This document shows, one piece after another, positions 7,113 to 40,461 of a DNA stretch of 64,000 nt. The stretch covers positions 7,963 to 71,962 of the forward strand of contig CAYZGU010000039.1 of assembly GCA_964478165.1 (NCBI GenBank). Reading direction: 5' to 3'. Every line of letters begins with the position of its first letter. The first letter of the stretch is position 1. The notes under the pieces are model-generated. The model worked only from the letters and a program-made list of their open reading frames with translations, had not been told where the DNA came from and searched no databases. Made by a program: the position numbers and the translations under genes. The DNA is from an uncultured bacterium (GTDB taxonomy: Bacteria > Poribacteria > WGA-4E > JAJDTR01).

Positions 7113-7213
7113 TTCTGCGCCATTCGCAGCTTAGTGTTTTCGGCCATCGCCCGACCAAAAAGGATTGGACGCGACACTTTTCTGTTCTGGCATCCTTGCC
7201 AAACGAGATGCAG

Positions 7214-12851: not shown

Positions 12852-12889
12852 AGGGTTAATTGAGATAGAAAGGGTTAATTGAGATAGAA
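12852..12889. repeat. Perfect 19-bp tandem direct repeat (agggttaattgagatagaa x2), 37-74 nt upstream of the TonB-receptor start
   Basis: Read directly from the sequence: two identical adjacent copies, with no spacer. Confidence 0.9.
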
Positions 12890-12925
12890 ACATTATAAAG
12901 ATAGGAAGGGGTAGATTATTTAATC

Positions 12926-15193
12926 ATGAACAGTATCAGAATATTGACTTCGCTTATCGGTATTGTGAATCTCTTGGTTAGAGTTTGTGTGGCGGAAGAT
13001 GGGCTTCCTCAAACAGTGGAAAATCAGGATGCCTGTTCGACTAAGACCGAAATCGTTGCGTTGCAGGAAATAACAGTTATCGGTTCCAAAGACGCTGAAC
13101 GGGACCTCGCTGGTTCCGGAGCTTATCTTGATCGTCGTGATATTAGCACTCACAGCTACAGTGATATAAGCCGTGTTCTGCGCAAAGTCCCTGGTGTTTA
13201 CCTGCGTGAGGAAGATGGCTACGGGCTTTTTCCCAACATTAGTTTGCGTGGCGTAGATCCGGGGCGTAGTGGGAAAGTCACTTTGATGGAAGATGGCATC
13301 CTATCAGCGCCCGCGCCTTATTCTGCTCCATCCGCATACTACTCACCAACAACTGGACGTATGACTGGCATTGAGGTTCTTAAAGGTTCGAGCCAGATTA
13401 AATACGGTCCCCACACTACCGGTGGAGTTATCAACTACCTGTCTACGCCGATTCCAACAACCCGACGCATCTATGAAAAATGGTCCTTAGGCACTGATAA
13501 TGAGGTTCGAAATCATTCGATTTATGGTGATACAATTGATGTGTCATTTGGGCAGCTCGGATTCGTGCTCGAGAACTATTACCGTGAACTCGACGGATTT
13601 AAAGAAATCGATTTACAAGATGACAGCCAAAATACCAATGATACGGGTTTTCGCAAGCATGATTCCATGGTGAAATTTGCCTTTGAACCCAGTACGAATC
13701 TCGCCCAACGGGTTGAGTTTAAGGTTGGTTATCTGGATAAGAAAGCGAACGAAACGTACCTCGGACTTACCGATGAGGACTTCGAACTAAATCCTTATCG
13801 TCGATATTCAGCCTCTCGATTTGACAACATGAAGGCTAACCATTTGCGGACTTATCTACGCTACACAGTTGCACCGGCGTCGAATTTGAATGTTTCCATT
13901 GCTGGTTATTACAATGAGTTCCATCGGAATTGGTTCAAATTGCGTGGCAGCGGCGAAGATCTGCTTAACCCAGAAAAGCTTGAAGTCTGGAAAGGCGATT
14001 CTGCGGGTACCCTCAAGTACCGGAATAACAACCGGGATTATCTTCTTTGTGGTCTCCAGTCGAATGCCAGCTTCAGGGTTGCTACGGGCGGAGTTGAGCA
14101 TGAATTTGATTTGGGTATCCGTTACCATTTCGACGAAGTACGACGCTTCCAGAGCAACGTTGATTTTGAACAAGACGAGAATGGGAATGTTATTGGGCGA
14201 ATGGATAAGGGGCCAGGATCCGGTGGAAATCGACTGCAAGAAACCACTGCACGTGCCGTGTTCTTGCAAGACCGAATTGAATTTGGTAGCCTGAAGATGA
14301 CCCCGGGAATCCGATTTGAACATGTTAAATACAGTTTTACGGATTTCGACACGACCGGTGAACCAGACAAGATTACTCGTGAGGGTGAATCCACGATGAG
14401 TCTGCTCGCTCCAGGGCTTGGACTGAACTTCGCTATGAATAATCGGCTGTCTGCGTTTGCGAGTGCGCACCGTGGGTTCTCTGTACCCGGACCACGAGCC
14501 AATGCCAAGAGTAATCTTGTTGAAGAGACCAGTAATGGGTTCGAGGCTGGTTTTAGGTTCAATGATAATGGTTTGCGGGCTGAAATGATTGGTTTTTACA
14601 CCGATTTTGATGACCTTCTGGTTTCCGATAATGTTGGAGGTGGTGGAATTGAGGGAAAGACCGAGAATGCAGGCGATATTGTCAGTTCTGGTATCGAAAT
14701 TGGCGCTACTTACGATCCCGGATTCGTGCATAACTTGGGTTTCAGTATTCCTTCACATATGGCTTTTACTTTTACCAATGCGACTCTGGATGGCGTCGCC
14801 AATTCCCTAGATGATGAATCGATTTTTGCGGGTGGGGAAGACGGACATCGAGTGCCCTATGTCCCTGAGATTCAGCTAACTGCAGGTACGGGGATCGAAT
14901 TCTCGAAGTGGGCTGTTTTTGTGACCGGCACCTTCGTTAGTGAAACCTTCACCTCAGCCAGTGAAAGTTCAATTTCGATTTCCCCTGATGGGACACCTAA
15001 TGCTAACTACGGTATGATTGATTCGTACTATGTTCTTGACGTTTCCGGAAAGTACAATATCGGTGAAAGACACAGCGCCTTCATCAACATCCATAACCTT
15101 ATGAATAGAGAGTACATGGTCTCGCGTCACCCAATTGGTCCGCGCTCTGGCAAGCCCTTTAGTGTGATGCTTGGGATGGAAGAGCGGTTCTAA
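12926..15193 (+). CDS. TonB-dependent outer-membrane receptor
   Basis: 755 aa. Signal peptide, plug-domain motifs (ISLRGVDP...VLKG), a long beta-barrel and a C-terminal aromatic residue (EERF). Confidence 0.85.
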   Translation: MNSIRILTSLIGIVNLLVRVCVAEDGLPQTVENQDACSTKTEIVALQEITVIGSKDAERDLAGSGAYLDRRDISTHSYSDISRVLRKVPGVYLREEDGYGLFPNISLRGVDPGRSGKVTLMEDGILSAPAPYSAPSAYYSPTTGRMTGIEVLKGSSQIKYGPHTTGGVINYLSTPIPTTRRIYEKWSLGTDNEVRNHSIYGDTIDVSFGQLGFVLENYYRELDGFKEIDLQDDSQNTNDTGFRKHDSMVKFAFEPSTNLAQRVEFKVGYLDKKANETYLGLTDEDFELNPYRRYSASRFDNMKANHLRTYLRYTVAPASNLNVSIAGYYNEFHRNWFKLRGSGEDLLNPEKLEVWKGDSAGTLKYRNNNRDYLLCGLQSNASFRVATGGVEHEFDLGIRYHFDEVRRFQSNVDFEQDENGNVIGRMDKGPGSGGNRLQETTARAVFLQDRIEFGSLKMTPGIRFEHVKYSFTDFDTTGEPDKITREGESTMSLLAPGLGLNFAMNNRLSAFASAHRGFSVPGPRANAKSNLVEETSNGFEAGFRFNDNGLRAEMIGFYTDFDDLLVSDNVGGGGIEGKTENAGDIVSSGIEIGATYDPGFVHNLGFSIPSHMAFTFTNATLDGVANSLDDESIFAGGEDGHRVPYVPEIQLTAGTGIEFSKWAVFVTGTFVSETFTSASESSISISPDGTPNANYGMIDSYYVLDVSGKYNIGERHSAFINIHNLMNREYMVSRHPIGPRSGKPFSVMLGMEERF

Positions 15194-18723: not shown

Positions 18724-20303
18724 GTTATTACAGGTTTCGCTGGCTTTCAAACTGGTATCTTCTCTTTCCGGGGATTGTCGTCAGCTCGGGTGTTCTTGTA
18801 CCCTTTGCGTACCTGACTGTAAGGGCTTTCGAGGCAGAGACTACGGAGTTGATCGAGATAGTCTTCCGTTCAAGGAACCTGCACCTTTTTGCCAATTCGC
18901 TCCTATTGGTCGGTAGTGTTATTATCGCGGATGTCATCTTGGCCGCCCCACTTGCGTGGCTTACTTGTCGCACGGATGTTAAGGCGAGACGAATTTTCAC
19001 TTTGATGGGCGTCCTCCCTCTGGCGATTCCTGGATATGTTATGGCTTTTGCCTTTATAGGTTTGGGTGGTGCCGATGGTCCACTCACTCAACTATTTGGA
19101 AGAAACATCCCGCGCCTTAGTGGGTACTGGGGATCACTCCTCGTTCTAAGCTTTTACACCGCGCCGTACCTCTTCCTAAATCTACGTTCGGCGCTTCTTG
19201 GCATAGATCCTGCTCTTGAGGAATCCGCTTCCGCTCTCGGCTACAGCCCCTTGGAGGTTATCCGTTACGTTATTCTTCCACAGTTGCGTCCTGCGTTTTA
19301 TGCCGGCGCTCTGATCGCTGGATTACATGTTTTGGGTGATTTTGGTGTCGTGTCGCTGATGCGATTTGAGACATTTAGTTACGCTCTTTATTTGCAATAT
19401 ACATCGGCCTTCGATCGTATCTACGCAGCATGGTTTGCCTTGATGTTGGTTGCGCTCGCAGTAGCACTCCTTTACACTGAAGGACGATTACTGAAAGGAC
19501 TAAACCTTCATCGGGTGGGAAGTGGTACCCTCTATAGCCCGCAGTCTGCTCCCCTCAATGGTTGGGCGAAGTGTTCGTATCTCTATCTCGTTGTTTTAAC
19601 AGGAGCAAGTGTCGTTCTACCTACTGGAACAGTGTTGTTTTGGATGGTGAAGTCGTTCGATGTGGCCTGTTTACAGAATCTGATTCAAGCACTTAGTGGT
19701 TCGTTTTTCGCGTCCGCTCCTGCTGCGATTTTGTGCACGTCCCTCGCATTGCCCCTGGCTTACGTCGGAGTTCATCGTCCTTCGCCTGTATCACGTTTGC
19801 TCGAACGTGTGGCATATATGGGTTATGCGACACCGCCACTAGCATTTGCACTCTCCCTCATCTTCGTGGTGCTGTGGGCGTTACCCGGAATCTATCAAAC
19901 GCTGTGGGTCTTAATATATGCTTACATTCTTCATTTCCTCGCTGAGGCTATTGGTCCGACTCGTAGCGCCATCTACCAGGCCTCACCAAGCATTGCGGAG
20001 GCCGCTAGGTCTTTGGGTTGTACCCGACCTGGAGCTTTCTTTAAAGCAACATTTCCGTTGCTGGTTCGTGGACTTTCCATCAGTACTGCTTTTGTGTTTC
20101 TTTCGGCGATGAAAGAACTTCCAATCGCTTTTCTACTTTCCCCTATAGGATTTGACACATTGGCATTAAGCGTCTGGAGCAACACGTCGGAAGCGATGTT
20201 TGCCGAAGCCGCACCATACGCTCTTTTAATTCTGATTTTCTCCGGATTGTTTGTAGGACTGCTGCTCTTTTTGGGAAGGAGAACGTATGACGCCCCTACT
20301 TAG
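18720..20303 (+). CDS. Iron(III) ABC transporter permease (FbpB-type, duplicated transmembrane domain)
   Basis: 527 aa, about 12 TM helices, two EAA-like loops. GTG start overlapping the stop of the binding-protein gene. Confidence 0.85.
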   Translation: MSYYRFRWLSNWYLLFPGIVVSSGVLVPFAYLTVRAFEAETTELIEIVFRSRNLHLFANSLLLVGSVIIADVILAAPLAWLTCRTDVKARRIFTLMGVLPLAIPGYVMAFAFIGLGGADGPLTQLFGRNIPRLSGYWGSLLVLSFYTAPYLFLNLRSALLGIDPALEESASALGYSPLEVIRYVILPQLRPAFYAGALIAGLHVLGDFGVVSLMRFETFSYALYLQYTSAFDRIYAAWFALMLVALAVALLYTEGRLLKGLNLHRVGSGTLYSPQSAPLNGWAKCSYLYLVVLTGASVVLPTGTVLFWMVKSFDVACLQNLIQALSGSFFASAPAAILCTSLALPLAYVGVHRPSPVSRLLERVAYMGYATPPLAFALSLIFVVLWALPGIYQTLWVLIYAYILHFLAEAIGPTRSAIYQASPSIAEAARSLGCTRPGAFFKATFPLLVRGLSISTAFVFLSAMKELPIAFLLSPIGFDTLALSVWSNTSEAMFAEAAPYALLILIFSGLFVGLLLFLGRRTYDAPT

Positions 20304-21384
20304 TGTTAAGAGAATTGGAAAATCTTTTGCCGCTCAATCACCGTCGGTCGTGGATAATGTCAGCTTTGAGGTGAAGTCCGGAGAGATTTTCGGCCTTTTG
20401 GGTCCAAGTGGTTGTGGAAAGACCACGACATTGCGATTAATTGCGGGCTTCGAACATGTGGATACGGGTGAAATCTACTTAGACAATCGGCCTATTGAAA
20501 CTCCCTCAGTTCACATATCACCTGCATTACGGAAGATTGGGTTTGTTTTTCAGGATTGCGCTCTCTTTCCACATCTCAATGTGTTGGATAATGTCTCTTT
20601 CGGACTTAAGAAATTACGCGGTAAGGCTCGGCGTGACCGGTCGATGGAAGTATTGGAAATGGTCGGGTTAGCTGAGTTCCAATCTCGAAGACCACATGAC
20701 CTTTCAGGTGGTGAGCAGCGGAGAGTGGCGCTGGCTCGTTCAATTGCACCCAGCCCCGAGATCATTCTGTTGGACGAACCATTTTCTGGTTTAGACGATC
20801 CACTGCGCCAATCAACACGAGAGGAAGTTCGGAAGCTCTTGAAGAAAGCAGGAACTAGTGCAATATTGGTCACGCATGATCAGGATGAGGCTTTAAGTTT
20901 AGCGGATCGGGTTGGGGTGATGAGAAGAGGTAAGCTTGAACAGACAGGTACTCCGGAGGATCTGTATCATCGTCCCAACACTCCATTTGTAGCAAGCTTC
21001 CTCGGGAAGACAAATCTGGTTTCCGGCCAAGGCGAAGGAGATTGGGCTGAAACCTCTCTGGGTAGAGTTAAACTCGATTGTTACGTTCGCGGAAAACTTC
21101 TCCTCTCGGTGCGCCCTGAGCACCTAATTATGACGAAAACTGATTCCGCGCAAACGGGTAGAGGTGCAGGCTGTATTGTTGCGCGTGAGTTCAAGGGACA
21201 CGATCTTACTTTTACCGTTCAGTTTGCAGGAAGTGATTACTTCGTCCAGACTGACTATCGATCTACTTGCAAGGTTGGGGAATGGGTTAGATTAGCCACA
21301 GTGGAACCTGCAGTCGTTCTTGAGCAACATGTGAAAGGAAAACCCCTGGGTTCTGAAACAGCCAACGGTGTTTCAGTTTCTTGA
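20287..21384 (+). CDS. Iron(III) ABC transporter ATP-binding protein (FbpC-type)
   Basis: Canonical Walker A GPSGCGKTT, Q-loop FVFQD, LSGGEQQRVALAR, Walker B LLDEPFSGLD, H-loop VTHD, and a C-terminal TOBE-like domain. Confidence 0.9.
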   Translation: MTPLLSVKRIGKSFAAQSPSVVDNVSFEVKSGEIFGLLGPSGCGKTTTLRLIAGFEHVDTGEIYLDNRPIETPSVHISPALRKIGFVFQDCALFPHLNVLDNVSFGLKKLRGKARRDRSMEVLEMVGLAEFQSRRPHDLSGGEQRRVALARSIAPSPEIILLDEPFSGLDDPLRQSTREEVRKLLKKAGTSAILVTHDQDEALSLADRVGVMRRGKLEQTGTPEDLYHRPNTPFVASFLGKTNLVSGQGEGDWAETSLGRVKLDCYVRGKLLLSVRPEHLIMTKTDSAQTGRGAGCIVAREFKGHDLTFTVQFAGSDYFVQTDYRSTCKVGEWVRLATVEPAVVLEQHVKGKPLGSETANGVSVS

Positions 21385-22132
21385 GGCTTGAATCGGGTAA
21401 AGCACCTTCAGCGGTTGTTGCGAAAACACAGCTCATCAGTGTCCCAACATACCTGGTCCAAAACGTCATTGGTTGGCTTTGTAGGAAGGCAAGTTGAGTT
21501 CTTCTCACTTTCCTGATACATTGTGGTAAATTGCTCGATGGCGATTAAACTAACTTGAATCGCGCATAAAAATTGCTCGAGTTCTCTAGGCGGTGTATTC
21601 TATCAGGCGTTCACTTGATGTAAGCTTAATGTCTTGTGTTCGCCTTGGAAACGTAAATATGTTCGTGGGATGATGTTGATGGCTACTGCGTTTCGAAGTC
21701 GTTGTGTCATAATATAAGCAGATTGTTTCTTTGTTCTTCTTACAGAGGTCTTACGGAGATATAAAATCAACCTATTAGATTCATGGATAAAATGATTTCG
21801 AATGATTAAGACGCAAAATCTTCAATTTTCGTTCGATTTAAGAATTGCTCCATCACAAAACATGAAAGGTTCCTGGTGGAGTAGTTGAATGTTTTGGCGA
21901 ACGGCGCTGCCAAGTATTTTTGATTAAGCTACTTCTTGGCTCGGTGAACAGGAAAATTAGACGTATTCTGGGCCAGAGATGCTGATTGTGGCACCTGTTG
22001 TGGAGACCAAGAAATGTATCGTTTGGATTGTTGAGGACGGATGTCATGTGAGTACTAGTCGCAGTGCGTTTGCCTCTCAATGCCGAACCTCGTGTTCTTA
22101 TGTAATCAGGTTTACTCATCGCAAGGAGAACT

Positions 22133-23026
22133 ATGACACCTGCCACGATTGGCTTAATTGGGCTCTCCGCACTTTTTCATGCAGTGTGGAATCTCTGCGC
22201 GAAATCAAGCAGGTCAACCCCGATTTTTTTCTTCTGGCTCAGCCTCTTTACACTCATCGTGACGGCGATTGTATTCCTAATTCGAGCACCAATTATTCCT
22301 TGGACGATCTGGGGTTATATCGGCGTGTCTGGCGTAGTCCACTTTGCTTATTGGTATTCACTAAGCCGTGCGTACACCATCGGCGAGATCTCCTTTGTTT
22401 ACCCAATAGCCCGTTCGGCTCCAGCTTTTGTCGCTGGCTTTGCGATGCTATTCTTCGGTGAAACACTTTCAATTTTGGGATTAATCGGCATCTTTTGTGT
22501 TCTGCTTTCAATTCATCTTTTTCATCACCGCGCTGGTGAGAGAAAAGTGAGAAGCTTCGTTCGACATCTAGGGAAGTCAGATTCTATCTGGGCATTTGCG
22601 ACGCTTGGTACTGTGATTTCTTATTCATTAATTGACAAACAAGGAATGGCCCAGTTCCGACTTCATTCTAGCGAAGCGGGTTCTTGGTGCTCCCTTATGT
22701 ATTATCTAACCGAAGGTTCCGTCTCCGCGGTATTTTACGGTGTCTATACCCTTTTCCAGTGCACGTGGAGGAGAATCGCTGATATCGGTCGACTAGAGTG
22801 GAGAAAAATAGTCTTAGCAGGTCCACTTGCGACGGTAGGGTATACCATCATTCTCTACTTGTTCATGACAGAGAAAGTCAGCTACGTTGTTGCACTCCGA
22901 CAATGCTCTATTATCTTCGCCGTGTTTTTCGGAGGTTACATATTGAAAGAGTCCCGCTCACGATTGCGAATAGCAGCGGCTATTTTGATGGTATTTGGCA
23001 TGTTTCTGATTGCGGGAGCGGAGTGA
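22133..23026 (+). CDS. DMT-superfamily (EamA-like) membrane transporter
   Basis: 297 aa, about 10 TM helices in two homologous halves. Confidence 0.6.
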   Translation: MTPATIGLIGLSALFHAVWNLCAKSSRSTPIFFFWLSLFTLIVTAIVFLIRAPIIPWTIWGYIGVSGVVHFAYWYSLSRAYTIGEISFVYPIARSAPAFVAGFAMLFFGETLSILGLIGIFCVLLSIHLFHHRAGERKVRSFVRHLGKSDSIWAFATLGTVISYSLIDKQGMAQFRLHSSEAGSWCSLMYYLTEGSVSAVFYGVYTLFQCTWRRIADIGRLEWRKIVLAGPLATVGYTIILYLFMTEKVSYVVALRQCSIIFAVFFGGYILKESRSRLRIAAAILMVFGMFLIAGAE

Positions 23027-23059
23027 TTGGGGGCGTAAGGCGCCCTTGCGTTGGTGAAT

Positions 23060-24033
23060 GTCATTTTAGAGTATTGATTCTTCGAATGCTATGTCTAGCT
23101 CTACGCTTCGCTCGGGGTGGTTGTCCATATCTTGGCATGCCTCAACAGACTGAGCAAAGGCAACCGCAGGTCGAACAACATCTTCACACGGGGGGTGTCC
23201 TTCAGACAGCCAGGTCGAGCAGGTGTCGAAGATGCGGCGAAAATCCCAGCGAGGGTGGTCGTTGTTGGAATCGCTGTTTGTCCGAGCGAAGATGAGATTA
23301 GGTACTTGGAAATGGGCCACTGCTCCGAAGTCTAGACCTCCTTTGCCCGCTTCTGCCCATCCGCCAAGTAAGATGTTAAGATGTTCCCGCCGAATGCCAG
23401 TTCATGAATCGCTTGGTCGAGGCCCATGTGGTTTGCGCGCGTGTCGGTTGCCGTCTTCAGTTCGAATCCGACACCGACGGCCATGGAATCGAGCTCTATG
23501 TCTGTACCTATCTCATCGCCATGGAGCGACGCGTTTCGAGTGGTTCGAGCGTAACCAGAAGGGAGGCGCCAGCTGAATTCGCCATCTGCGCTGACATTAA
23601 TCCGATTGCTCCGAGGCCAAAAATGGTGACGCCATCGTCAAGTCGCACTTGTCCATCTCGAATTACTTCTAGTGCAAATTGCGCGGGACCATAACAGACG
23701 GCTTCTTTCCATGTCATTCGCTCGTTCATGCGTAATCATTTTGTGACTTCCCACGTATGTGTCTTCCGCAAGTGGCCATGACCTGCCTTCTACCACCTAC
23801 TGAGAAACCTTCCACGCAACTACCAGTTTCCATAATCCGTTCCACGCACATGTTGCCCCCAATCCCATCGCGAATTTGTTTCTGCGCAGTCCGTAATATC
23901 CTGTCATTTCAGTCCCGCGTTTCGTAGCCCCGAACTCAACCTTGACGCGCACGTGTCCTTCAGGAACTGGCCCATGTTCGTAATCGCGTAGGATGGGATT
24001 CTGAGGTGCGACGGCAACGAATACTTTTGGCAT
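23060..24033 (-). pseudogene. Fragmented medium-chain dehydrogenase/reductase (alcohol-dehydrogenase-like) gene remnant
   Basis: Three minus-strand ORFs in different frames. ORF 23797..24033 has an MDR N-terminus (GPVPEGHVRVKVEFGA...). ORF 23508..23729 has the substrate-domain end plus Rossmann GLGAIG. About 50 aa are missing between them, and the Zn-ligating Cys are replaced. Confidence 0.4.
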
Positions 24034-24099
24034 GCTAATCTCCTAATCCTAGCTCTTGGCTTCTTAATTTGGCACAGAGTTAGCCACGGGTGTCACAGC

Positions 24100-24825
24100 T
24101 TAGTTTCTAGTTTGATCGTTTGTGTTGGGAATTGTGAGCTCTAGAAAAAGATCTGTTAAGTCTGTTTCGACTGCGGCTATTTTGTCATGGTAAGCCAAGC
24201 CAGATTGGGCCAAGATTGCAACATGGCTACAGATTGGGACTAGATCAGTGGGACGGTTCGTTGCGATGACAATTGCCTTTCTCATTGCAGCGAGCTCTTG
24301 TATCAGTGCTTTCATTTCAATCTGTCCGCGCGCGTCTAGTCCCAGCAGTGGCTGGTCGAGCAACCAGACCTGTGGATCGTGTAGGAAGGTTTTTGCCAGA
24401 CAAAGTCGCCGTTTCTCGCCGTAGGAGAGAGATTTGATCTTCCGATTGGATAGTGCACCAATATCCGTGAGATTGAGGACTTCTTGAACTAAGGTCGTAT
24501 GCGTTCTCTTCTCTAACTTGTAGGCTCTCGAAAAAAAATCAAGGTATTCATGGACCGAGAGGTCTGGATAGCCATGGAAGGTTTCTGGCACGTAACCGAT
24601 GTTCGGTCGCACGATTTGTGGGTTGTTTAACGCGTCATGGCCAATGATAGTGAGGTTGCCGGACGTTGGCTTCTCAATGGTTGCTAGGATTTTGAGTAGA
24701 AGGGTTTTGCCTGAACCGTTGGTCCCGAGTAGTCCAAGGCAATTACCGTATTCCACACGAAACGTAAGGTTTGTGAGAACGGTATTTTCACCGATAGATT
24801 TGCTCAGATTCTTTACTTCAATCAC
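24100..24825 (-). CDS. ABC-type nucleotide-binding domain protein with degenerate catalytic motifs
   Basis: 241 aa. Walker A GTNGSGKT and signature LSYGEKRRL are present. Q-loop is VPETF (Gln to Glu), Walker B is LLDQP (catalytic Glu to Gln), H-loop is ATNRP (His to Asn). No permease gene adjacent. Confidence 0.8.
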   Translation of the reverse strand: MIEVKNLSKSIGENTVLTNLTFRVEYGNCLGLLGTNGSGKTLLLKILATIEKPTSGNLTIIGHDALNNPQIVRPNIGYVPETFHGYPDLSVHEYLDFFSRAYKLEKRTHTTLVQEVLNLTDIGALSNRKIKSLSYGEKRRLCLAKTFLHDPQVWLLDQPLLGLDARGQIEMKALIQELAAMRKAIVIATNRPTDLVPICSHVAILAQSGLAYHDKIAAVETDLTDLFLELTIPNTNDQTRN

Positions 24826-25147
24826 GACGGCCCCCCTTGCTATCAGTTGTGGTGCATATGAGCCTTATTTGTGAGTTTCTATGCGCGAATTCCAAGAGTC
24901 TCTTAAGGACTTGAGTGCCTCAAAACACGTGAGCCGCTCTCATATTTGCTGTGGATCGACCTTTGTGATTATAACATGGCTTGGCTATCTTGATAACGAT
25001 TTTATTTTATACCCCAATTCGTATGTGGAATCACGTTCGAAGAAAAAGGCACCTTAAAGGAGTGAGTTCACAACTTTTTTAAATGTCCTAAAATCAAGAG
25101 TCTATCATCATGGGTTAGCGTGTATGCGATTTTGCGACCCCCTCCAT

Positions 25148-26473
25148 TTAGAAGCTGATTTCTACGGAGGCGACGTTCCAATCTGTTTCGATATTAGCAA
25201 ATCGAGCCACGTGTAGATTGAGGAACTTGAACAGTCGTAAAGTCGCACCATACGTGGAAAACCCTTGATTGTTTCCTACACGTAGGCCTATTGACAACAG
25301 ACTTTTGGGCAGGAAGACTGCCTCGGCACCCAGATGGAGACGGTCATTAAATGAGCCGGACTTGAATTGACCGAGTTGATCGTCACCGTTAGGATCCTTC
25401 AGGGCTCCAGCAATGGTTAGATGACAGATGTCCGTGGCGAGATCTAGTAGTTCAAGTGGTTTTGCCGCGAACGAAATGACAAAGTTTCGCGGGAATTGAC
25501 AATCAACTTCTATTTTAGTACCAGTGGAATGTTTCTGCTTAACGGTGATGCCGCTGATGGAGTTGCGAAGGGTCAATCCGACCTTTAACCCATCGATTGG
25601 AGTAAGTAACGTTCCTACGTCCATACTGTACCCACTTGAAAAATCCAGATTATCAAGCGCAAATTGGCCAAATCCTTCTGCCTTATCGAAATCGAGATAG
25701 TTTTTTTTGAATTCGTCAGGATTAAGGAGATCCGCAATCTCGAAAGGATCGTTTTCATCTGTTACAACTCCCCGTCGAACGAAGCGAATTCCGCAGCCAA
25801 AGCTTGCTGTTTTGAGAAAGGGTTGGTTCGTGGGAATTTGAACGGCTAATGCGGTGGCTAATGCAATTTGACCCGTGACTCGATAGATGACATGATTATC
25901 TAATGCCTCAATCACGGAATCTCGCCACGGTAATCCCCTTTTGACAACCTCTAGGTCTACTTTGCCTTGTGAGTATAGCGACAATCCCAACGTAGCCTGA
26001 TAACGTTCGTCGGAAGCTAGCGGAATAATCATCCCAAACGATGGCAGGCCGACATCGAGACCGAGTCTCTGGGTAAGGAGGTTTTCTGCGCGATTTACAA
26101 GCTTCTCGCGTTCACTGGCTACCGCGGGATCCCTCAGCGGATCATCTGAGGCCATCAACGGCTTGATGGTTTCGTTAAAAAATCTGGTAATCGTATCCAA
26201 CTCACCTGCCAGATCGTCTGTCACTCGTGCACGAAGCGCTAGGAATTGGAAAAGTGTGTTGTCAATCTGTGCTAAACCAGCAGGATTATAGTGTAGCGCG
26301 TTGATGTCATCGGCGACGGCTTCGAACCCGTTTCCTAATCCGAGTGCGCGAGCTCCGTGAAAGAGAAATAGCGGTTCTCTCCCATCTTCTGCAATTGCAA
26401 GAAATGAGATGCTGAACAGTGTCAATGCTAGTAGTGTCGAGACGATAAAGGTTCCTGAACTGGTGAATCTCAT
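25148..26473 (-). CDS. FadL/OmpP1/TodX-family outer-membrane channel for hydrophobic compounds
   Basis: 441 aa. Signal peptide; N-terminal hatch motif GLGNGFEAVADDINALHYNPAGL matches FadL [26 protein letters not shown]; C-terminal Phe. Confidence 0.6.
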   Translation of the reverse strand: MRFTSSGTFIVSTLLALTLFSISFLAIAEDGREPLFLFHGARALGLGNGFEAVADDINALHYNPAGLAQIDNTLFQFLALRARVTDDLAGELDTITRFFNETIKPLMASDDPLRDPAVASEREKLVNRAENLLTQRLGLDVGLPSFGMIIPLASDERYQATLGLSLYSQGKVDLEVVKRGLPWRDSVIEALDNHVIYRVTGQIALATALAVQIPTNQPFLKTASFGCGIRFVRRGVVTDENDPFEIADLLNPDEFKKNYLDFDKAEGFGQFALDNLDFSSGYSMDVGTLLTPIDGLKVGLTLRNSISGITVKQKHSTGTKIEVDCQFPRNFVISFAAKPLELLDLATDICHLTIAGALKDPNGDDQLGQFKSGSFNDRLHLGAEAVFLPKSLLSIGLRVGNNQGFSTYGATLRLFKFLNLHVARFANIETDWNVASVEISF

Positions 26474-26579
26474 TTTGTCTCCTCCATCAGGTTAATAGAG
26501 TTTCAACCTTGTTGGCAAACGAGTGCCATTTGCGCATTGATTTGCGCTGCGACGTGGTTGTTTGGGGCGTTGTAGTACT

Positions 26580-27536
26580 TCACCTAATTTGTCTAATTCG
26601 ATTGCCCAGCGCATTCCTGTCAAAGACAAACCCCCAGTCAATTAGCTCATCTGCAAACGTGATAATGACATCTTCGCCAATCACATCAATGAAGTCTAGA
26701 ATTGCCGCCTCCTGATCGGGTGCCACTTGTTTTGCCAAAGCCAGTGCATGTTCAAGATGGAACAGTGCATCCTGCTGGTATATCGTACGATCAACCCGTG
26801 CTATGTCGGCCTCAATTGGGTGTCCATCGATGTCCTTGACATTCGGAAACCCCGGGACTGATGCGCTTGGACTGGCTAGCAAAGCCAACGCAAGAAGTAT
26901 GCTCTGGCGTTCGCTAGCACGAAACTGCCCAAGTAGATCTCCCGGTCGCCTGTTTGAATCGCTCTCAACTTGTCTGAATACGTCTGTTCGTATGTTTCCA
27001 CGTGGGGCCAGACCAATTTTATACCTAGTGGGATTTGGCAAATGGCTAACGAATAGAAGATCGTCGTCGGTTCCTTGGATGCCATCGAGTCCAAAGCCTT
27101 CTATTAGTATCAACCTGACGGCTTCCAATGTATAGAGTCGAACGAGATCGAGGTGAATAAACATCAAATCAGTATCAGAAATTGGCAAAAATAGTTGGGA
27201 TGGAGCTGCCAGACTGAGTGTCGAAATTCCGTGATTCAGCGCATCTAGGAGTCTGTAGTAGCCAGCAATGGCCTGCTGAAGCTCATCCTCAAGTACCACT
27301 AATTCAAATGGATCTAACAACAATTCAGATGCGAGATCAGCAACGTCCCCGAGGTTTGAGAAATTCAGGAGAATTCCAGCGTCTTCGAGTCCCTGCTGTG
27401 TTTGATTAAAAATCTCTTTTGCTTCTTTCAGACTAGACTGCTCCGGTTCATGAACATGCATGCGTTCGGAACAAGACAAGAGAAAAATAATAAAAATGGC
27501 TATGGAGCTAGTGAAAAATGTATGTTGAATATACAT
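26580..27536 (-). CDS. Hypothetical lipoprotein (signal peptide with LLSC lipobox), acidic and Leu-rich
   Basis: The ORF is open to 27602, but MYIQHTFF...IFLLSC gives a lipoprotein signal peptide. No recognisable domain. Co-oriented immediately upstream of the FadL-like gene. Confidence 0.4.
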   Translation of the reverse strand: MYIQHTFFTSSIAIFIIFLLSCSERMHVHEPEQSSLKEAKEIFNQTQQGLEDAGILLNFSNLGDVADLASELLLDPFELVVLEDELQQAIAGYYRLLDALNHGISTLSLAAPSQLFLPISDTDLMFIHLDLVRLYTLEAVRLILIEGFGLDGIQGTDDDLLFVSHLPNPTRYKIGLAPRGNIRTDVFRQVESDSNRRPGDLLGQFRASERQSILLALALLASPSASVPGFPNVKDIDGHPIEADIARVDRTIYQQDALFHLEHALALAKQVAPDQEAAILDFIDVIGEDVIITFADELIDWGFVFDRNALGNRIRQIR

Positions 27537-28106
27537 TAACAAGTGGCGCGATGTCCTTAGGCCAATAATCGGGCTTTGTCGAGTCGTAATGGTTTTATGC
27601 ATTTCCTTTTTCTCCGATTTGTGTCTGCGGTGATGAATTCATGCAGGTAGTGGATGATTGATTTGGGTAACATGAGTCCTGTGCTTCACGGTCAACCAAT
27701 GCAATAGGTATGCCAAATGAGCCTGTCGAAAACGATGGCCGATGGAAGTGAGGAACATATTCGGTGATTACGAATGCTAAAACGATAGAAAGTAATTAGT
27801 CAATAACACGACGTAGGGCGGTCTTCAGAGGGGATTGCGAAGCGTCAGTTTTCCTCGGGTTTGAATTCAGTTCCATTTATCATTCGCGACTTCAGGGGGG
27901 AATAAGTAGGTTAGGTGCGACTTGCCCAAGCGGGTTGTAAATCCAGTTTAAAGTATACTTTTTCATTCATCTGTGCAGTACGGGATAAGATTCGCACACA
28001 CTGCCCATGTCTTTTCTCGATTAAAATGGTTCAACAAAAGAGCGGTAATGCGTTTGCGTCCTTGGGTTAGGCCCAGGACAGATTTTGGTTATTCGTAAGT
28101 ATTTCG

Positions 28107-28152
28107 TTGTCAGCACTGTTTAAGATGTCCGCTGATTGAACAGTGCTGACAA
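28107..28152. repeat. Perfect 14-bp inverted repeat (TTGTCAGCACTGTT ... AACAGTGCTGACAA) with 18-nt spacer in a gene-poor region
   Basis: Read directly. No flanking U-tract and no adjacent gene end. Confidence 0.5.
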
Positions 28153-28790
28153 TGATAACTAATTAGGCGATGCTCGGCTATCGGACAGTTCAATTAGATT
28201 TGGGACTTTTCCCCTATGCAGAGTTAGTTAACTGTTTGTGACGACAAACTATGCTTGTGTAAGGTGTTTGTCAGTAGTTACATGTTGTTCTGAGTAATAT
28301 CGTTATAGGAGGCCACGTATCCACATCATCAGGGACGCGTTGAGAAGTGATGAAAATGGTGTTTGTCGGTTTTGGTTGGGTACAGACGAGCAGTTTCTGG
28401 GGAATGATGTTGTTGTGGAGTCTTGAACACGGAGCGTAGTATGCGGCAAACATGGTAGGTAGGCTGTGGGCTTCCGAGCATCGATGATTTAGAAGAACTA
28501 CGCACTGAATCTTACAGCACTCTGTCCCCCAGACAACAAAGACGGTAGCGACAATGCCAAAACGTCATCTCGATTATGGCCGTTGTTTCAGTGGGTCATG
28601 AAAAAAAGATAGGTACACTCCACGTCCATTAAGAATGTACAGGACTACAAACACCGTCCAATTGTCAGAAAAAAGGCATGTGTGTCAACTGGTTGGTGAA
28701 AACCATCTAGAATTTGGCCGAGATGATAGGTGGGCTTCCATAGGTGCACAGTTACTCTTTTTGACAAGCTCGAAATCTCCGTATAGGTAT

Positions 28791-29378
28791 CTAACGTTGT
28801 TTGAGAAGTTCTGCCACATGGATGCGGAGTTTGGCGCCGGTATGGATCAGATCCTCATTGCCGATGGTATTTGATTCAATGATCTGATTCACACTGACGC
28901 CGTATTGCTGCGCAATCTTTACAAGGTTATCGGTTCTTTTTACAACGTAATAAATATCCTGTTGAAGAGGGATGTGAAGCTTTTGGCCCGTGTGGATTTT
29001 GTCCGGATCTCGGATTTCGTTGAAACGTAAGAGTGTGGCTACATCGAGATTATATTGCTGTGCAATCTTTCCAAGAGTGTCATATTCTTGAATCACGTAG
29101 ATGTGTGTTGAATCATGGGATACGGCCCGAGTAATTGGGGGACTTTCAAATTGGCTTTCATACTCTACAGATGATTTCTGGTTAAGGTCTGCAGAATCGC
29201 GGATTTGAGGGCCTTCCGAAAAAGCCCCGGCTAAACCTATCTCTTCCTGCCCAATTCCGGCGAGGGTGTCTCTATCTTTTATTACCGATGGTGGCCCTTC
29301 ATACAATTTGTCAAGCAAAATTATCAATAATGCTAAAAGAATCGAGGTCCACATTATTAGCTGAGTACGGGGGTTCAT
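28791..29378 (-). CDS. Membrane-anchored tandem LysM-domain protein
   Basis: Two LysM repeats (YVIQEYDTLGKIAQQYNLDVATLLRFN and YYVVKRTDNLVKIAQQYGVSVNQIIESN). The Met at 29378 is preceded by AGGAGA and followed by a TM helix. The ORF upstream of that Met (to 29558) is probably not translated. Confidence 0.7.
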   Translation of the reverse strand: MNPRTQLIMWTSILLALLIILLDKLYEGPPSVIKDRDTLAGIGQEEIGLAGAFSEGPQIRDSADLNQKSSVEYESQFESPPITRAVSHDSTHIYVIQEYDTLGKIAQQYNLDVATLLRFNEIRDPDKIHTGQKLHIPLQQDIYYVVKRTDNLVKIAQQYGVSVNQIIESNTIGNEDLIHTGAKLRIHVAELLKQR

Positions 29379-31619
29379 TAAGGTCTCCTGACTATGGGGA
29401 TTGAAGGTTGGACCAATTTTCGCGGGTTCTGCATTTCTAATGTAGCCTTGCATCGAATCTAAATCTGGGATTTCATCCACTATTCTGTGCCAGCTGCATG
29501 CGACGGGCGTGGAGATCTTTATCTTGTTGAAAGCTTCTACTATTGGGTAAACGTCCATTTACCTAATCACGTTTCAAGCCAAAATTTCATCATATTCATC
29601 AAGTCTTGAGTGTTCAAATATATAGTGCAATAGCGCCTGCTTGTAGCTCATGTCGAATTCGCGAATACGGTATATGGACCAAGAACAGATTTCTGTTCGC
29701 CAATACTTGGTGGTGTATCAGAGAAAGCAAGCTTTTGAAAGGCTCGTATCTGCTTCTTGACCATCTGTCTGAATGCTCATTATGAGATGCTGAGACAGTG
29801 CGCGTCCTAGACGATAACAGCGGTAAACGACAACACGGGTAGGAGAAAATCCAGACGTCAGAAGCGACGCCTGCATCGGATTTACAATCATTCCGAGCAC
29901 CCCATATTTGAAAATTGTCTTTCGATGGCAGGGTCTGTGAATCCGTCTGCACGAGTCGTTGTCATGGGCAGTTATGTTGGCACTCAGGTTCGAAATCGAA
30001 TTGGTGGTGCGTGCGTTCGATAACGGTACTCGTCGCAATAATCCGGATTTCGAGGTCGTACTTGGGAAAGATAGCGAGACAAATACTACCTCCACATTTC
30101 TGTCAAAAGGTTGCGTATCTCGTTTAATCCGTTCGAATGGCGGAAGAGCTAATTTGGAATTATTAGGAAAGAGCGGGATTCCTATGCAATCAGATGGAAT
30201 TGGCGTTGCAGCTTGATTTTCCGGAAATCTAGTCCCATGTTTTGGCAATTAATATGTCGGGCTATTGGAAACAAGCTGGACCGCTCTTCCATCTGGGCAG
30301 AAATCGAGAAGATGGAGATCCGCATTAGTACGATCTGCCTTTTGTACTGGAGGAAAGCGTCCTGATTTATAAGCTAACATGTTGGGTAAATTTGACAAGG
30401 TTGTACTGCTTGTTCCGTTTCGAGGGTGCTCAGCTACATGATTCCTGATGATGTTTGTGTTTGCAGAGAAGTTCAGGAGAATGTGGATCGCTTAAAAACC
30501 TGGTCCATGTTATCACACTTTGATTGATGGGCGCATCTTTCTCATTGTTGACTTGATTATAGCGGTGTATTGCATGGAACACAAGAGACTTTAACAAACA
30601 CCTGATAACAACAGATTTGGAAGTCTGGGTCTCGATCCTTATTCTGGTATCATATTCGAATAAGCTTCCACGAATAATCGTTGGCATACGATAGGGAGGC
30701 GCCAAATAGGATTGAATTGAAGACAGAGCGAGGCGGTATTCTGTAAAAATTAATAAGCCAATTCCATCTAGAATGGCAAGGATTAGGGACTGAGTATTAC
30801 ATGTAAGACCTCAAGGCTCGTGCGATTGTGCATGTAACTAACTGTTCAAAAGCCTCACTGTTCCCTCACTATTCAATTGGACTGTTAGGGAACTACATGC
30901 CGTTCATAAACAAGTACGTAGAAGGGAGGATACGGTTTGCTGTGACTTGAAAATCCGCATGGAAAGTGTCAGTGTTGATTACTTGTGTGCCGGTGTGGAC
31001 CTGCGATGGTGGAAATATATCAGCAAAATGGAATTTTTACCAATGCTCAAACAATGGGCAACATTTTGAATGCGAAGATGAGGAGTTGTTGTATCTTCTT
31101 CTTTTTCTTCTCGCTTTGAAGGTGTATTTACAACCAGTGTATGCTTATTGAACCCCAACATGCTATTGTCATATGTTTGCGCTGTTTTTTCGTCCAGTGG
31201 TGTTCTTTCATTGGGGCGTAGATGCGAATTCAGCAACGCCTGCCATCGAGACTGTCAAGCATAACATCAAGAAAGACATGCAGAGTGTGGGAAGATAGTG
31301 GAGTGAAATTAGTACACATAGTTTCAACAGGTACCCATTATTGAAAATGAAACGGCAGAGAAGTTACTATTCGATGAGATTAACGGTTATCGGAACTTGA
31401 CAAAATCCACTAGTAACTCCCTCTTGCTCGCACAATCAATTTGATTGACGTGCAAATTACGGATATGCTAAGATAGGAGGCGGCTCTCACGAAGGTGCCT
31501 ATGTGGCGTGTGGCCGCATGTAGGAGGCTATTCGAAATTGGTGGAATCTGAATGTTTGTGGAACTATGTTGTTTAATGTTTGGAAGAAAGTGTCAAAATA
31601 GATTAAGGGAGACGCGTGT

Positions 31620-32381
31620 ATGCCGGAAATTGGATTACCTCATATGATTGGTGGGATTATTGTCATTGTAGCATTGCTGACTTCTTTTCGTATTCTCAAG
31701 GAATATGAGCGTGCTGTTGTTTTTCGTCTTGGCCGGCTTAGTGGAACAAGAGGGCCCGGATGGGTGTGGTTGATTCCGTTCTGGGTCGAACGGATGCAAA
31801 AAGTTAGTCTTCGTGTCGTCGTACAGGATGTTACCCCTCAAGACGTTATTACAAAAGACAATGTTTCAGTTAGCGTGAATGCGGTGCTTTCCTTCCGAGT
31901 GGTTGATCCGGATAGGGCGGTAGTTGAAGTGGAAGAATTCGGATTTGCAATTGCGCAAGTCGCCCAGACGACGCTTCGTAGTGTGCTCGGGAGAGCTGAA
32001 CTTGATGATCTATTGTCCGAGAGGGAAAAATTGAATCGGGACCTTGAGACTATTATTGGACAACACTGCGAACCATGGGGAGTGACAGTGCTCGCGATGG
32101 AAATTAAGCATGTTGACCTGCCGGCAGAAATGCAGCGGGCAATGGCCAAACAGGCAGAAGCTGAACGAGAAAGACGAGCCAAGGTGACTCACGCCGAGGG
32201 TGAATTGGAATCGGCGAGTGCCTTGACAGATGCGGCGATGACTCTCAGTGCGACTCCAGCGGCTATACAACTGCGATTCCTTCAGGCACTGGTTGAAGTG
32301 TCTGCTGAGAAGAACTCAACGCTCGTTTTTCCGATTCCCATCGATCTACTAACCCCATTTCTAAAAAAAGGAAATGACTAG
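31620..32381 (+). CDS. SPFH/band-7 (stomatin-like) membrane protein
   Basis: N-terminal TM helix, the [15 protein letters not shown] signature, and a C-terminal coiled coil rich in AEAERE. Confidence 0.8.
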
Positions 32382-36249: not shown

Positions 36250-37581
36250 ATGGTTCGACGGAGAGCTTGGTTTACGCTTGTCATTTTACTGCTTTGTCCA
36301 GTTGGTTACGCGATTGAAAAACACGATGAAGTTGATATTGACCCCTCACAACCCTTGTCCCTTGAACAGTGCATTGAACTTGCCCTCGAAAACTCATCCG
36401 ATATGCAACACGGACGGCTTAATCTTGCACTCCAAGATCTGCGTGTTACAGATGCACGTGCGCAATATCTTCCCGAAATATCCTTCAATGGTCAGTATAG
36501 CTTCTCAGATGACATAGCCTTTGGGTTGAATCGACGGAATTACAATCTTGGCGTCACGGGCAGCTATACGCTCTGGGATCATGGACAAAGAGCGGCGAAT
36601 TATCTTCGGACAAAGGAGAGACGAAAGGAAACAGGAAGTCAGAACGAACGGATCAGACAGCACCTGATTTTCCAGATAACTCAGGCGTATTATGCTGTGT
36701 TGAAGGGCCAGGAGCTCGTCAAAGTTAGTCGTGAGATTTTGGAGAGGTCCAGGGAGAATACAGCTGCAACACGGGTCCATGTGGAAGTTGGAAATCTGAT
36801 TCCGGCTGATATTGCTACTTCTCAGGTGAGGGAAGCCAATGATGAACTAAATCTTCTGAGTAACGAGAACGATCTGAAAATGTCCAAGACAATATTGCCA
36901 CGACTTATGGGTCTCAAACCAGGAATGTCGATTTCTCTCGTTCGGGATACTAATTATGAGAAGTACCGCGAAGAGAGTGGGATTCAAATTTCGGGAAGAT
37001 CAGTCGATGAGGCAATCCAGGTTGCGTTTGAAAACCGGCCTGAGTTCAAGGAAATTAATGCCGTTCTTAGTCAGATTGACTCTGATTTGGCGGTTGCAAA
37101 ATTGAATCGTTGGCCACAGTTGGACGCTGATTTCAGCTATAAGGTCAATCTCCACGATTACCTCCACGAGGGAGAGCACTTTAACGAATATCGCAGTTGG
37201 GATTTTACAACGCGGTTGAATTTTCCGATTTTTGATGGTGGGTTTGCCAGGCGTCGGGTGCGCGAGGGAGAATTACTGCTTGAGAAAACACGTGAGGATG
37301 CCATGGAGCTTGAGCGGTCAATTGCTCTCGAAGTTTGGCAAGCCTACTTAAGTTTGAAGCGAGCGGAACGGGCTATAGAAATTTCTGGGACTCAGGCTAG
37401 AAACGCGGCTGCAAGCCTCGAGGTGATTAGGGGACGCTTTGAGCAAGAACTAGCGTTTCTATTGGAACTCCTCGATGCCCAAACCCGGTATGCACAAGCT
37501 ATGACCAACCAAGTTCGGTCGTTCTATGATTATAGAATTGCGTGCAGTGCATTGCAGCGGACAATGGGAACGCTAAAATGA
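36250..37581 (+). CDS. TolC-family outer-membrane efflux protein
   Basis: 443 aa. Signal peptide, two repeated coiled-coil/beta halves, and typical OEP motifs. Confidence 0.8.
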   Translation: MVRRRAWFTLVILLLCPVGYAIEKHDEVDIDPSQPLSLEQCIELALENSSDMQHGRLNLALQDLRVTDARAQYLPEISFNGQYSFSDDIAFGLNRRNYNLGVTGSYTLWDHGQRAANYLRTKERRKETGSQNERIRQHLIFQITQAYYAVLKGQELVKVSREILERSRENTAATRVHVEVGNLIPADIATSQVREANDELNLLSNENDLKMSKTILPRLMGLKPGMSISLVRDTNYEKYREESGIQISGRSVDEAIQVAFENRPEFKEINAVLSQIDSDLAVAKLNRWPQLDADFSYKVNLHDYLHEGEHFNEYRSWDFTTRLNFPIFDGGFARRRVREGELLLEKTREDAMELERSIALEVWQAYLSLKRAERAIEISGTQARNAAASLEVIRGRFEQELAFLLELLDAQTRYAQAMTNQVRSFYDYRIACSALQRTMGTLK

Positions 37582-39551: not shown

Positions 39552-39729
39552 AATCCGTTGTTCTACTGATATACACATTGAATACTCACGAATGACTTCG
39601 AATAGGCCTATATTCTGCGAATCCTACTAGCGGCATTTGAAGGCTTTCAGTTGAAAATTAGGATGTTCCGTTCTGATTGTCGTGCATTCACAGATGGAAA
39701 GTACGCATGAAACAATGTAGAGTACACGT

Positions 39730-40461
39730 TTGTCGAACGATAATGTACTATATCCATGTTTGTTTACGAGGTGGAAATTGTTAATAGACGTTCGCAATCT
39801 CAAGAAATTCTATCAGATGGGCGATGTTCAAGTACGTGCATTGAGAGGTCTGACGTTCACGGCGGAATCGGGAGAATTCATTGCGATTATGGGACCGTCG
39901 GGATCTGGAAAATCAACGATCATGGACATCCTGGGGTGCCTCGCACAGCCAACCGAAGGTGAATACTATCTTGAGGGAGAAGAAGTCGGCCGATTGTCGG
40001 ACAACCGCCTGGCTGAGATTCGGAACCGCAAAATTGGTTTTGTTTTTCAAACATTTAACCTGCTGCCTAGGACAAGTGCGCAGCACAACGTCGAATTGCC
40101 ACTCATCTACGCTGGTGTCGGACGAAAGGAACGTAGGCTCCGTGCCTTAGAGTCTCTCGAAGCCGTTGGATTGGGCGACCGGGTAGATCATAAATCCACA
40201 GAGTTGTCCGGTGGTCAAATTCAGCGTGTGGCCATTGCGCGGGCTTTAGTCACCCAACCGTCGATCGTTTTTGCCGATGAACCCACCGGGAATCTGGACA
40301 CTACGTCGGGAGCCGAGGTCATGGCAATCTTCGACCGACTGAATCAAGAAGGTAACACGATTATAATGGTTACGCACGAATCGGAAATCGCCCAGCATGC
40401 AGGCCGTGTTCTTCATATTCGGGATGGCTTAATCGAGAAAGACGAGCGACGTGGAAAGTAG
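39730..40461 (+). CDS. MacB/LolD-type ABC transporter ATP-binding protein
   Basis: Canonical Walker A GPSGSGKST, Q-loop FVFQ, LSGGQIQRVAIAR, Walker B FADEPTGNLD, H-loop VTHE. No FtsX-type permease gene follows. Confidence 0.85.
   Translation: MSNDNVLYPCLFTRWKLLIDVRNLKKFYQMGDVQVRALRGLTFTAESGEFIAIMGPSGSGKSTIMDILGCLAQPTEGEYYLEGEEVGRLSDNRLAEIRNRKIGFVFQTFNLLPRTSAQHNVELPLIYAGVGRKERRLRALESLEAVGLGDRVDHKSTELSGGQIQRVAIARALVTQPSIVFADEPTGNLDTTSGAEVMAIFDRLNQEGNTIIMVTHESEIAQHAGRVLHIRDGLIEKDERRGK

Follow-up and report, generated by a model that had tools for sequence, protein, structure and literature searches.

A stand-alone ABC-2-type nucleotide-binding domain of Poribacteria with an asparagine switch: a candidate hydrolysis-deficient ATP-binding module

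What can an ATP-binding cassette (ABC) protein do when the residues that cleave ATP have been replaced and no permease gene lies beside it? The question is raised by a gene for a 241-amino-acid ABC nucleotide-binding domain (NBD) in a stretch of 64,000 nucleotides from an uncultured bacterium of the Poribacteria (assembly GCA_964478165.1, contig CAYZGU010000039.1, positions 7,963 to 71,962). We call this whole stretch the window and give its coordinates from its first letter. An earlier sequence-only reading of the window had reported three catalytic substitutions in this protein, and from them proposed an ATP-binding, non-hydrolysing module with a regulatory or structural role, accompanied by an outer membrane protein (OMP) and a lipoprotein encoded on the same strand. 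From the alignments, family comparisons and gene contexts described here, we consider it probable that the protein is a functional member of a Poribacterial clade of stand-alone ABC-2-type NBDs, which would bind ATP, dimerise and act as a hydrolysis-deficient switch. The first part of the earlier proposal is thus largely upheld, with two substitutions in place of three; the functional link to the OMP and the lipoprotein is not.

The ATP site and its two substituted residues

The protein is an ABC domain by both profile and fold. It matches the Pfam profile PF00005 with 101.1 bits (E=1e-28) over a cut-off of 25, and its AlphaFold2 (AF2) model is a complete NBD (pLDDT 90.2, pTM 0.87) that Foldseek superposes on TM0544, EcsA and LptB with TM-scores of 0.87-0.88, ATP-bound LptB E163Q being among the best fold matches. 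The GTG-initiated open reading frame (ORF) is unbroken over the whole NBD and has a Shine-Dalgarno-like site upstream, and an identical protein is encoded on an independent 4.2-kb ENA contig. The best-scoring NCBIfam models are the GldA equivalog TIGR03522 (162.8 bits against a cut-off of 402.6) and the DrrA subfamily TIGR01188 (152.1 bits against 312.45). We read the protein as a derivative of the GldA/DrrA-like ABC-2 NBD subfamily that falls below both cut-offs and does not have the gene neighbours of GldA or DrrA. Its motifs were placed by phmmer against PDB chains, by BLASTP against Escherichia coli LptB and by multiple alignments of the family, and all three placements agree, which bears out the manual alignment of the sequence-only reading. 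The numbering of LptB in the alignment agrees with its known residues K42, Q85, F90, E163 and H195. The gene and its motifs are as follows.

24100..24825, minus strand: ABC NBD gene, 241 amino acids, GTG start after AAGGGGGG; stand-alone, degenerate, ABC-2/GldA-DrrA-like
24703..24726, minus strand: Walker A GTNGSGKT, residues 34-41, intact; Lys40 invariant in the family
24583..24585, minus strand: Glu81 at the Q-loop position, aligned with LptB Q85; the family has Gln in 65, Glu in 52 and Ala in 4 members, canonical relatives Asp
24412..24429, minus strand: signature LSYGEK, residues 133-138; Ser134 and Gly136 invariant, Tyr135 at the first Gly of LSGG
24352..24369, minus strand: Walker B VWLLDQ, residues 153-158; Asp157 invariant, Trp154 a clade-specific shift from Leu
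24352-24354, minus strand: Gln158 at the catalytic Glu, aligned with LptB E163 and with the engineered Glu-to-Gln site of the ABCA3 and ABCA4 structures
24334..24345, minus strand: D-loop LGLD, residues 161-164; Asp164 invariant, the usual Ser being Leu in the window copy
24256..24258, minus strand: Asn190 at the switch His (ATNR), aligned with LptB H195

Two of the three reported substitutions are true degeneracies by this alignment: the catalytic Glu that follows the Walker B Asp is Gln158, and the switch His of the H-loop is Asn190. The best PDB sequence matches found by phmmer are engineered Glu-to-Gln constructs of ABCA3 and ABCA4, which outscore the wild-type proteins slightly because they have this Gln in common with the window protein. 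The third substitution, Glu for the Q-loop Gln, is present as reported but is of a different kind. Canonical relatives, described below, carry Asp at this position (PD) and a signature of the form LS[RK]GM[KQR], for example LSRGMK, and therefore both the Q-loop Glu and a signature other than LSGGQ are normal for the subfamily and not signs of degeneracy; we rejected Glu81 and LSYGE as catalytic defects for this reason. The signature was also described as intact, which it is not in the strict sense, as its first Gly is Tyr; this position is variable across the whole subfamily, canonical members included. Set against LSGGQ and SALD, the LSYGEK and LGLD of the window protein keep the signature Ser, the second Gly and the D-loop Asp, and Walker A is intact as stated. 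The other two ABC ATPases of the window (20287..21384 and 39730..40461) are canonical at all of these positions, again as stated.

A Poribacterial clade with asparagine at the switch

The substitutions gain their meaning from the family in which they occur. The nearest non-identical relatives in protein searches are 60-63% identical and 251-255 amino acids long, and are followed by a large set of proteins of about 315 amino acids; those that carry a source name belong to Candidatus Poribacteria. A scan of a genome collection with one genome per species gave 595 loci, the best 20 of which lie in Poribacteria or in metagenome-assembled genomes (MAGs) at 49-62% identity, while the next 60, at about 40% identity, come from Sumerlaeota, Planctomycetota (mostly Phycisphaerae), Armatimonadota and a few other phyla. 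In a search of 1.84 billion representative sequences with a hidden Markov model, scores of 525, 401 and 334 bits were followed by a drop to about 280 bits, the level of generic ABC-2 NBDs, and the degenerate family therefore appears to consist of only a handful of clusters at 50% identity.

Residues were counted over the window protein and 120 cluster representatives (n=121). The switch position is Asn in all 121, and the motif ATN[RHCS] recurs in 24/24 Poribacterial loci taken from genomes. At the catalytic Glu position the same sequences vary freely, with Ala in 80, Glu in 23, Asp in 8, Gln, Thr and Gly in 3 each and Asn in 1, and the nearest relatives of the window copy have Glu, Asp or Gln there. 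Lys40, Asp157, Ser134, Gly136 and Asp164 are each invariant (121/121). The canonical state, SSHI at the switch together with DEP at Walker B, is found in 59/59 non-Poribacterial relatives. The sequence-only reading had made its case depend on whether orthologs share the substitutions, and here the answer is divided: the change from His to Asn is clade-wide, and the change from Glu to Gln is lineage-specific.

A neighbour-joining tree places all sequences with Asn at the switch in one monophyletic clade on a long stem (0.186). The window copy is sister to L001, L004 and L005 and has the longest terminal branch, and DEP is kept in subclade c and in part of subclade a. The simplest history consistent with this tree would be a single replacement of His by Asn at the base of the clade, retained since, and as a second step the repeated and independent loss of a Glu that had become superfluous, with Gln arising both in the lineage of the window and in P0018. 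The contrast between an Asn that never changes and a catalytic-base position that varies freely argues for selection of the Asn for a role and against a passive loss; this role is most likely a contact with the gamma-phosphate of ATP.

The gene also appears to be under purifying selection. The ratio of nonsynonymous to synonymous substitution rates (dN/dS; Nei-Gojobori) is 0.10-0.16 in 13 of 15 pairs spread over three subclades, and 0.12-0.15 between the window copy and its nearest relatives, where dS is saturated. Strain-specific decay as the source of the switch Asn is ruled out, as the change is clade-wide and dN/dS is low.

Two further proteins from the search of representatives extend the range of such domains. 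P0177 (804 amino acids) holds three tandem NBDs in one polypeptide, two of them degenerate (LLDDP/TGRN with LTRCQ, and LMDEA/TARM with MSRFQ) and the third canonical and GldA-like (LLLDEP/SSHI). P0217 (249 amino acids) is a more distant stand-alone NBD with a switch other than His (IATSNNP) and LIDSP instead of DEP, and may stand for a separate origin of degeneracy or be an outlying member of the Poribacterial lineage.

Function weighed against gene context

Mutants of characterised NBDs in which the Walker B Glu is changed to Gln or Ala, or the H-loop is altered, still bind ATP but hardly turn it over, if at all, and their closed dimers are stable, MJ0796 E171Q and HlyB H662A being examples. 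The residues for Mg-ATP binding and closure of the dimer sandwich (Walker A Lys, Walker B Asp, signature Ser and Gly, D-loop Asp) are frozen in the Poribacterial family, and the catalytic Glu seems to be dispensable within the clade, being Ala in most members and Gln in the window copy. Because the ATP-site residues are frozen, the two hydrolysis residues are gone and mutants of this kind behave as described, we propose that the protein would serve as an ATP-occupancy switch or clamp and not as a motor: it would bind ATP, form a long-lived ATP-bound dimer and hydrolyse very slowly or never. In natural degenerate sites the H-loop often deviates where the Walker B Glu has been lost, and such sites can hold ATP for minutes, stabilise the closed dimer and act as a hinge or possibly as a sensor (PMC7756269).

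The surface through which an NBD docks on a partner is probably retained as well. The stretch that runs from the Q-loop to the helical subdomain shows no variation in the family (F83, G85, Y86, P87, S90, Y94, L95, F97, F98, A101 and Y102), and the block EYLxFFAaAYK is common to the Poribacterial clade and its canonical relatives and equally conserved in both. Tyr86 aligns by BLASTP with LptB Phe90, which is presumably needed for binding the coupling helices of LptFG. Conservation of this coupling-groove block indicates that the surface is still selected, which suggests partner docking. The partner would most likely be a membrane protein whose gene lies at another site in the genome, and not the adjoining OMP or lipoprotein; possible candidates are the membrane domain of an unlinked ABC-2 system, a canonical NBD and soluble proteins, among them the PhyH-type enzyme encoded beside the NBD in subclade c.

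The gene context fits a stand-alone unit. Gene calls in the high-GC relatives were crude (greedy choice of the longest ORF), and some neighbour assignments are approximate. By tblastn, about 22 of the 59 canonical loci have a permease of the ABC2_membrane type (520-620 amino acids, 12-13 transmembrane (TM) segments) downstream and about 37 have a large 3-TM protein upstream, some contigs being too short to show the neighbours. No copy of either turned up in the 64-kb window or in the +-10 kb around a Poribacterial locus, and a GldG-like gene is likewise absent from the window and from every Poribacterial locus. In the window, an ABC-2 permease was sought by a crude TM count of all ORFs, by Pfam on unassigned multi-TM ORFs and by tblastn with the permeases of the relatives, and none was detected, nor does any permease adjoin the gene, in line with the earlier statement that a permease is missing. 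Across the 24 Poribacterial loci there is also no second NBD of the subfamily and no transmembrane domain (TMD) within +-10 kb. The immediate surroundings of the gene in the window contain two features.

23066..24033, minus strand: putative pseudogene of a zinc-dependent medium-chain dehydrogenase-like protein (MDR), directly downstream of the ABC gene, in at least 4 pieces over all three frames
24968..24996, minus strand: promoter-like site TTATCA-17-TG-TATAAT, sigma-70-like with an extended -10, a consensus match only

The promoter-like site lies in a non-coding gap of 322 bp between the stop of the OMP gene and the start of the ABC gene. No regulatory RNA was found there, as Rfam gave no match at E<=1 across 22000-31700 (the 322-bp leader and nearby gaps); the window has no tRNAs. 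On the other side, the MDR remnant occupies the place expected for a permease. It comprises an N-terminal piece (MPKVFVAVAPQNPILRDYEHGPVPEGHVRVKVEFG...), a Rossmann piece (GLGAIGLMSAQMANSAGAS) and a C-terminal end (...VELDIAFEESIL), and was assigned by reading the sequence, the pieces having no Pfam match; its breaks may reflect either a pseudogene or local assembly indels. Beyond it lies a convergent EamA gene. In the syntenic locus L001 the MDR gene is absent and EamA directly follows the NBD, the backbone common to both being Band_7 ... NBD, EamA ... iron-type ABC importer. Between the window and the contig of one relative the Band_7 genes are 90% identical, which, with the Poribacterial names of the NBD and OMP homologues, places the window in a divergent Poribacterium. 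The subclade of the window (L001, L004 and L005) shows the order ECF sigma (divergent), NBD and EamA (convergent).

Three stretches of the window, 27603-28790, 30249-31619 and 21385-22132, run for about 0.7-1.4 kb each with no ORF of convincing length, and together with the frameshifted dehydrogenase they hint at low coding density or at further gene remnants. Elsewhere, 36250-41705 on the plus strand encodes an OEP (TolC-like) protein, a 669-amino-acid HlyD-type adaptor, the canonical MacB/LolD/DevA-like ATPase (39730-40461) and then a GHMP kinase.

Several points weigh against a hydrolysis-deficient switch. At columns that are at least 90% conserved, the window copy departs from the family at 13 positions, more than any other of 120 members (mean 2.5), and given these departures and the adjoining pseudogene a relaxation of constraint in the lineage of the window is weakly possible. 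The Asn could still position the gamma-phosphate, and slow hydrolysis might persist wherever DEP is kept (in subclade c and some of subclade a). That no permease lies within +-10 kb leaves room for one farther away. The MacB/DevA-like ATPase at 39730-40461 also lacks an adjoining permease of the FtsX/MacB type, and a separation of ABC parts may be commonplace in this genome. MsmX and MsmK are documented examples of orphan NBDs that work with permeases encoded at a distance (PMC7658222). An ordinary alternative would be a slow or regulatory NBD that serves an unlinked permease.

Among the specific alternatives, the one that we hold tentatively, as possible though not favoured, is that the clade has left transport altogether and forms true pseudo-ATPases, each a cytoplasmic ATP-occupancy sensor or ATP-gated dimerisation module that was ancestrally coupled to an oxidoreductase/dioxygenase cassette. 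The cassette is seen in subclade c (10 loci) and in L006, where the order is Gfo/Idh/MocA, NBD, PhyH-type Fe/2OG dioxygenase, Gfo/Idh/MocA, and in many of these loci a protein of 831 amino acids without a Pfam match comes after.

L013-L023 and L006, about 8900-15100: NBD-Gfo/Idh/MocA-PhyH arrangement (for example L016, 8916-15079)

The stop of the NBD gene (TAA) overlaps the start of the dioxygenase gene (ATG) as TAATG in 8 of 10 inspected loci, and an orthologue of the second Gfo/Idh/MocA gene (78-80% identity) is retained in three loci of subclade b. The ancestral coupling is proposed because the NBD of subclade c both overlaps the PhyH-type start and stands between two Gfo/Idh/MocA genes. 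Overall the ABC gene behaves as a stand-alone unit, the only recurrent neighbours of which appear to be these cytoplasmic oxidoreductases.

It is unlikely, in our judgement, that the protein is a catalytically competent energising subunit of an ABC-2 exporter whose permease lies elsewhere, with the Asn and nearby residues taking over from His and Glu. Such a subunit would account for the conserved coupling-groove block, for the DEP kept in subclade c and part of subclade a and for the unlinked ABC parts of this genome, the MacB-like ATPase among them, and it has a precedent in orphan NBDs that serve several transporters (PMC7658222). These precedents, MsmX and MsmK, are likewise encoded away from their permeases, but they are ATPases of MalK-type importers with fully canonical catalytic motifs. 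In the Poribacterial clade the catalytic base is Ala in 66% of cluster representatives and Gly, Thr, Asn or Gln in others, and the switch His is missing from every member. The loss of the base abolishes hydrolysis in characterised NBDs (PMC7756269), and all 59 canonical relatives keep both residues, so neither is generally dispensable in the subfamily.

We find it quite doubtful that the protein pairs, as the degenerate member of a heterodimer, with a canonical NBD from another locus; such a pair would have one non-hydrolytic and one active site, as TM287/288, TAP1/2 and BmrCD do. Loss of the Walker B Glu and the H-loop His with the signature Ser and Gly kept is the pattern of a degenerate subunit (PMC7756269), and the related P0177 fuses two degenerate NBDs to a canonical one. 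In known heterodimers, however, the partners are fused or adjacent, and in the window protein the degenerate Walker B and H-loop come with neither a fused nor an adjacent canonical NBD and TMD in any of the 24 loci (+-10 kb); no canonical Poribacterial paralogue was identified, a genome-wide search for one not having been made.

A gene that is decaying in the window strain, a relic on its way to a pseudogene, is very improbable. The window copy does have the most deviations and the longest terminal branch, its acidic C-terminal tail, present in the nearest relatives, is missing, and the adjoining MDR gene is frameshifted. Against this, the frame is whole over the NBD behind its Shine-Dalgarno-like site, most deviations are conservative (I/V, L/I, D/E, A/S, F/Y), all invariant ATP-binding residues are present, dN/dS against the nearest relatives is low even though dS is saturated, and the identical protein stands on the independent contig. 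We read the divergence as a long branch and not as decay.

The weakest alternative brings in the remaining neighbours, which lie upstream of the ABC gene on the same strand.

25148..26473, minus strand: beta-barrel OMP, 441 amino acids, of the FadL/TodX/PorV/TraF_2 fold class; Poribacteria-specific; outside the ABC unit
26580..27602, minus strand: lipobox protein, ORF of 340 amino acids, with a probable start at Met23 (27536) and a hydrophobic stretch ending FLLSC; no Pfam match
28791..29558, minus strand: LysM-domain protein, first gene of a LysM-lipoprotein-OMP module

The barrel had been called a FadL/TodX-type channel for hydrophobic substrates. FadL and TodX are indeed its best structural matches in the PDB, with TbuX and PorV also among the best, but the likeness is weak: the AF2 model has pLDDT 78, the top match to FadL has E=5e-8, and TM-scores to FadL and TodX are 0.41-0.48 with a root-mean-square deviation of about 12 A. 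The sequence stays below all family cut-offs, at 15.8 bits against a gathering score of 29.7 for Toluene_X (PF03349) and 23 bits against 90 for PorV/PorQ (NF033709), with faint N-terminal profile matches to PorV/PorQ, Toluene_X and TraF_2. Fifty-six proteins make up the OMP family; the named ones are all from Poribacteria, and unlike the FadL, TodX and PorV barrels the family invariably comes with a lipoprotein and a LysM protein. The lipoprotein, described as novel and orphan, has homologues of 27-47% identity in other Poribacteria, always upstream of the OMP homologue. The order LysM, lipoprotein, OMP recurs in 3/3 other Poribacterial contexts, with about 10 bp between lipoprotein and OMP genes in the relatives, and the gene downstream of the OMP differs in each of the three and is never an ABC gene.

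L084, L085 and L086, about 6000-9300: LysM-lipoprotein-OMP module in relatives

One of these contexts, from a Poribacterial MAG, also carries a DarT/NADAR pair (a DarTG-like toxin-antitoxin) a few kb downstream of the module (L084, 15410-16911).

The OMP and the lipoprotein are thus best described as parts of a separate conserved module, whose adjacency to the ABC gene seems to be lineage-specific. By tblastn, homologues of both are absent within +-10 kb of all 23 other Poribacterial ABC loci, and in the synteny with L001 the OMP module sits where the relative has an ECF-sigma pair. A common operon with the ABC gene is ruled out by these related loci and by the OMP's own contexts. A three-gene envelope system, in which the NBD would regulate uptake of hydrophobic substrates through the FadL-like OMP and the lipoprotein, had in its favour that the three genes lie on one strand within 3.5 kb and that FadL and TodX are the closest structures, but it is already largely refuted by synteny, the 322-bp gap with its promoter-like site also speaks against it, and we regard it as highly improbable.

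Comparison with known systems and meaning

The closest comparison is with the canonical ABC-2 NBDs of Planctomycetota, Sumerlaeota and Armatimonadota, which are about 40% identical over the whole NBD and have in common with the Poribacterial clade a non-Gln Q-loop, an LSxG signature and the EYLxFFAAAYK block; a C-terminal domain of the PF13732 type is found in them and also in Poribacterial subclade b. They differ in having DEP and SSHI where the Poribacterial clade has a relaxed catalytic position and ATN, and in having a permease beside about one third of loci and the 3-TM protein beside about 60%, whereas the Poribacterial clade has no linked permease. The degenerate sites of exporters (TAP1, CFTR NBD1, BSEP NBS1, TM287/288, TmrAB and Pdr5) resemble the window protein in combining loss of the Walker B Glu with a deviating H-loop, and they keep ATP binding, which is here predicted, are under selection and are thought to act as hinge or sensor (PMC7756269). 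These sites, however, are fused to TMDs and always paired with a canonical site; the window protein is stand-alone with no adjacent TMD or partner NBD, and in a homodimer of it both sites would be degenerate. The same positions have been substituted in engineered NBDs (LptB E163Q, ABCA3 and ABCA4 Glu-to-Gln, MJ0796 E171Q and HlyB H662A), which are laboratory mutants made for trapping ATP-bound dimers, while the Poribacterial state is natural and evolutionarily fixed.

Our full-text searches of the literature returned general reviews only, and no description of the Poribacterial family or of an orphan NBD with Asn at the switch. Degenerate sites are already known inside heterodimeric and full-length transporters; what the present family appears to add is a natural, clade-fixed, stand-alone and hydrolysis-deficient ABC-2 NBD. 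The role of degenerate ATP sites, as hinge, sensor or regulator, is still debated (PMC7756269), and the Poribacterial NBD would offer an uncomplicated soluble system in which to study the effects of ATP occupancy in the absence of hydrolysis. Annotations should avoid transporter ATPase as the default label for the family, and the OMP and lipoprotein deserve a label of their own, as a LysM-lipoprotein-OMP envelope module. If the clade consists of true pseudo-ATPases, it would be a case of a bacterial NBD of the ABC-transporter type exapted for a non-transport, non-hydrolytic role. A hydrolysis-deficient switch fixed throughout the clade would mean that Poribacteria, uncultivated symbionts of sponges, have rewired an ABC-2 system in a way specific to their lineage.

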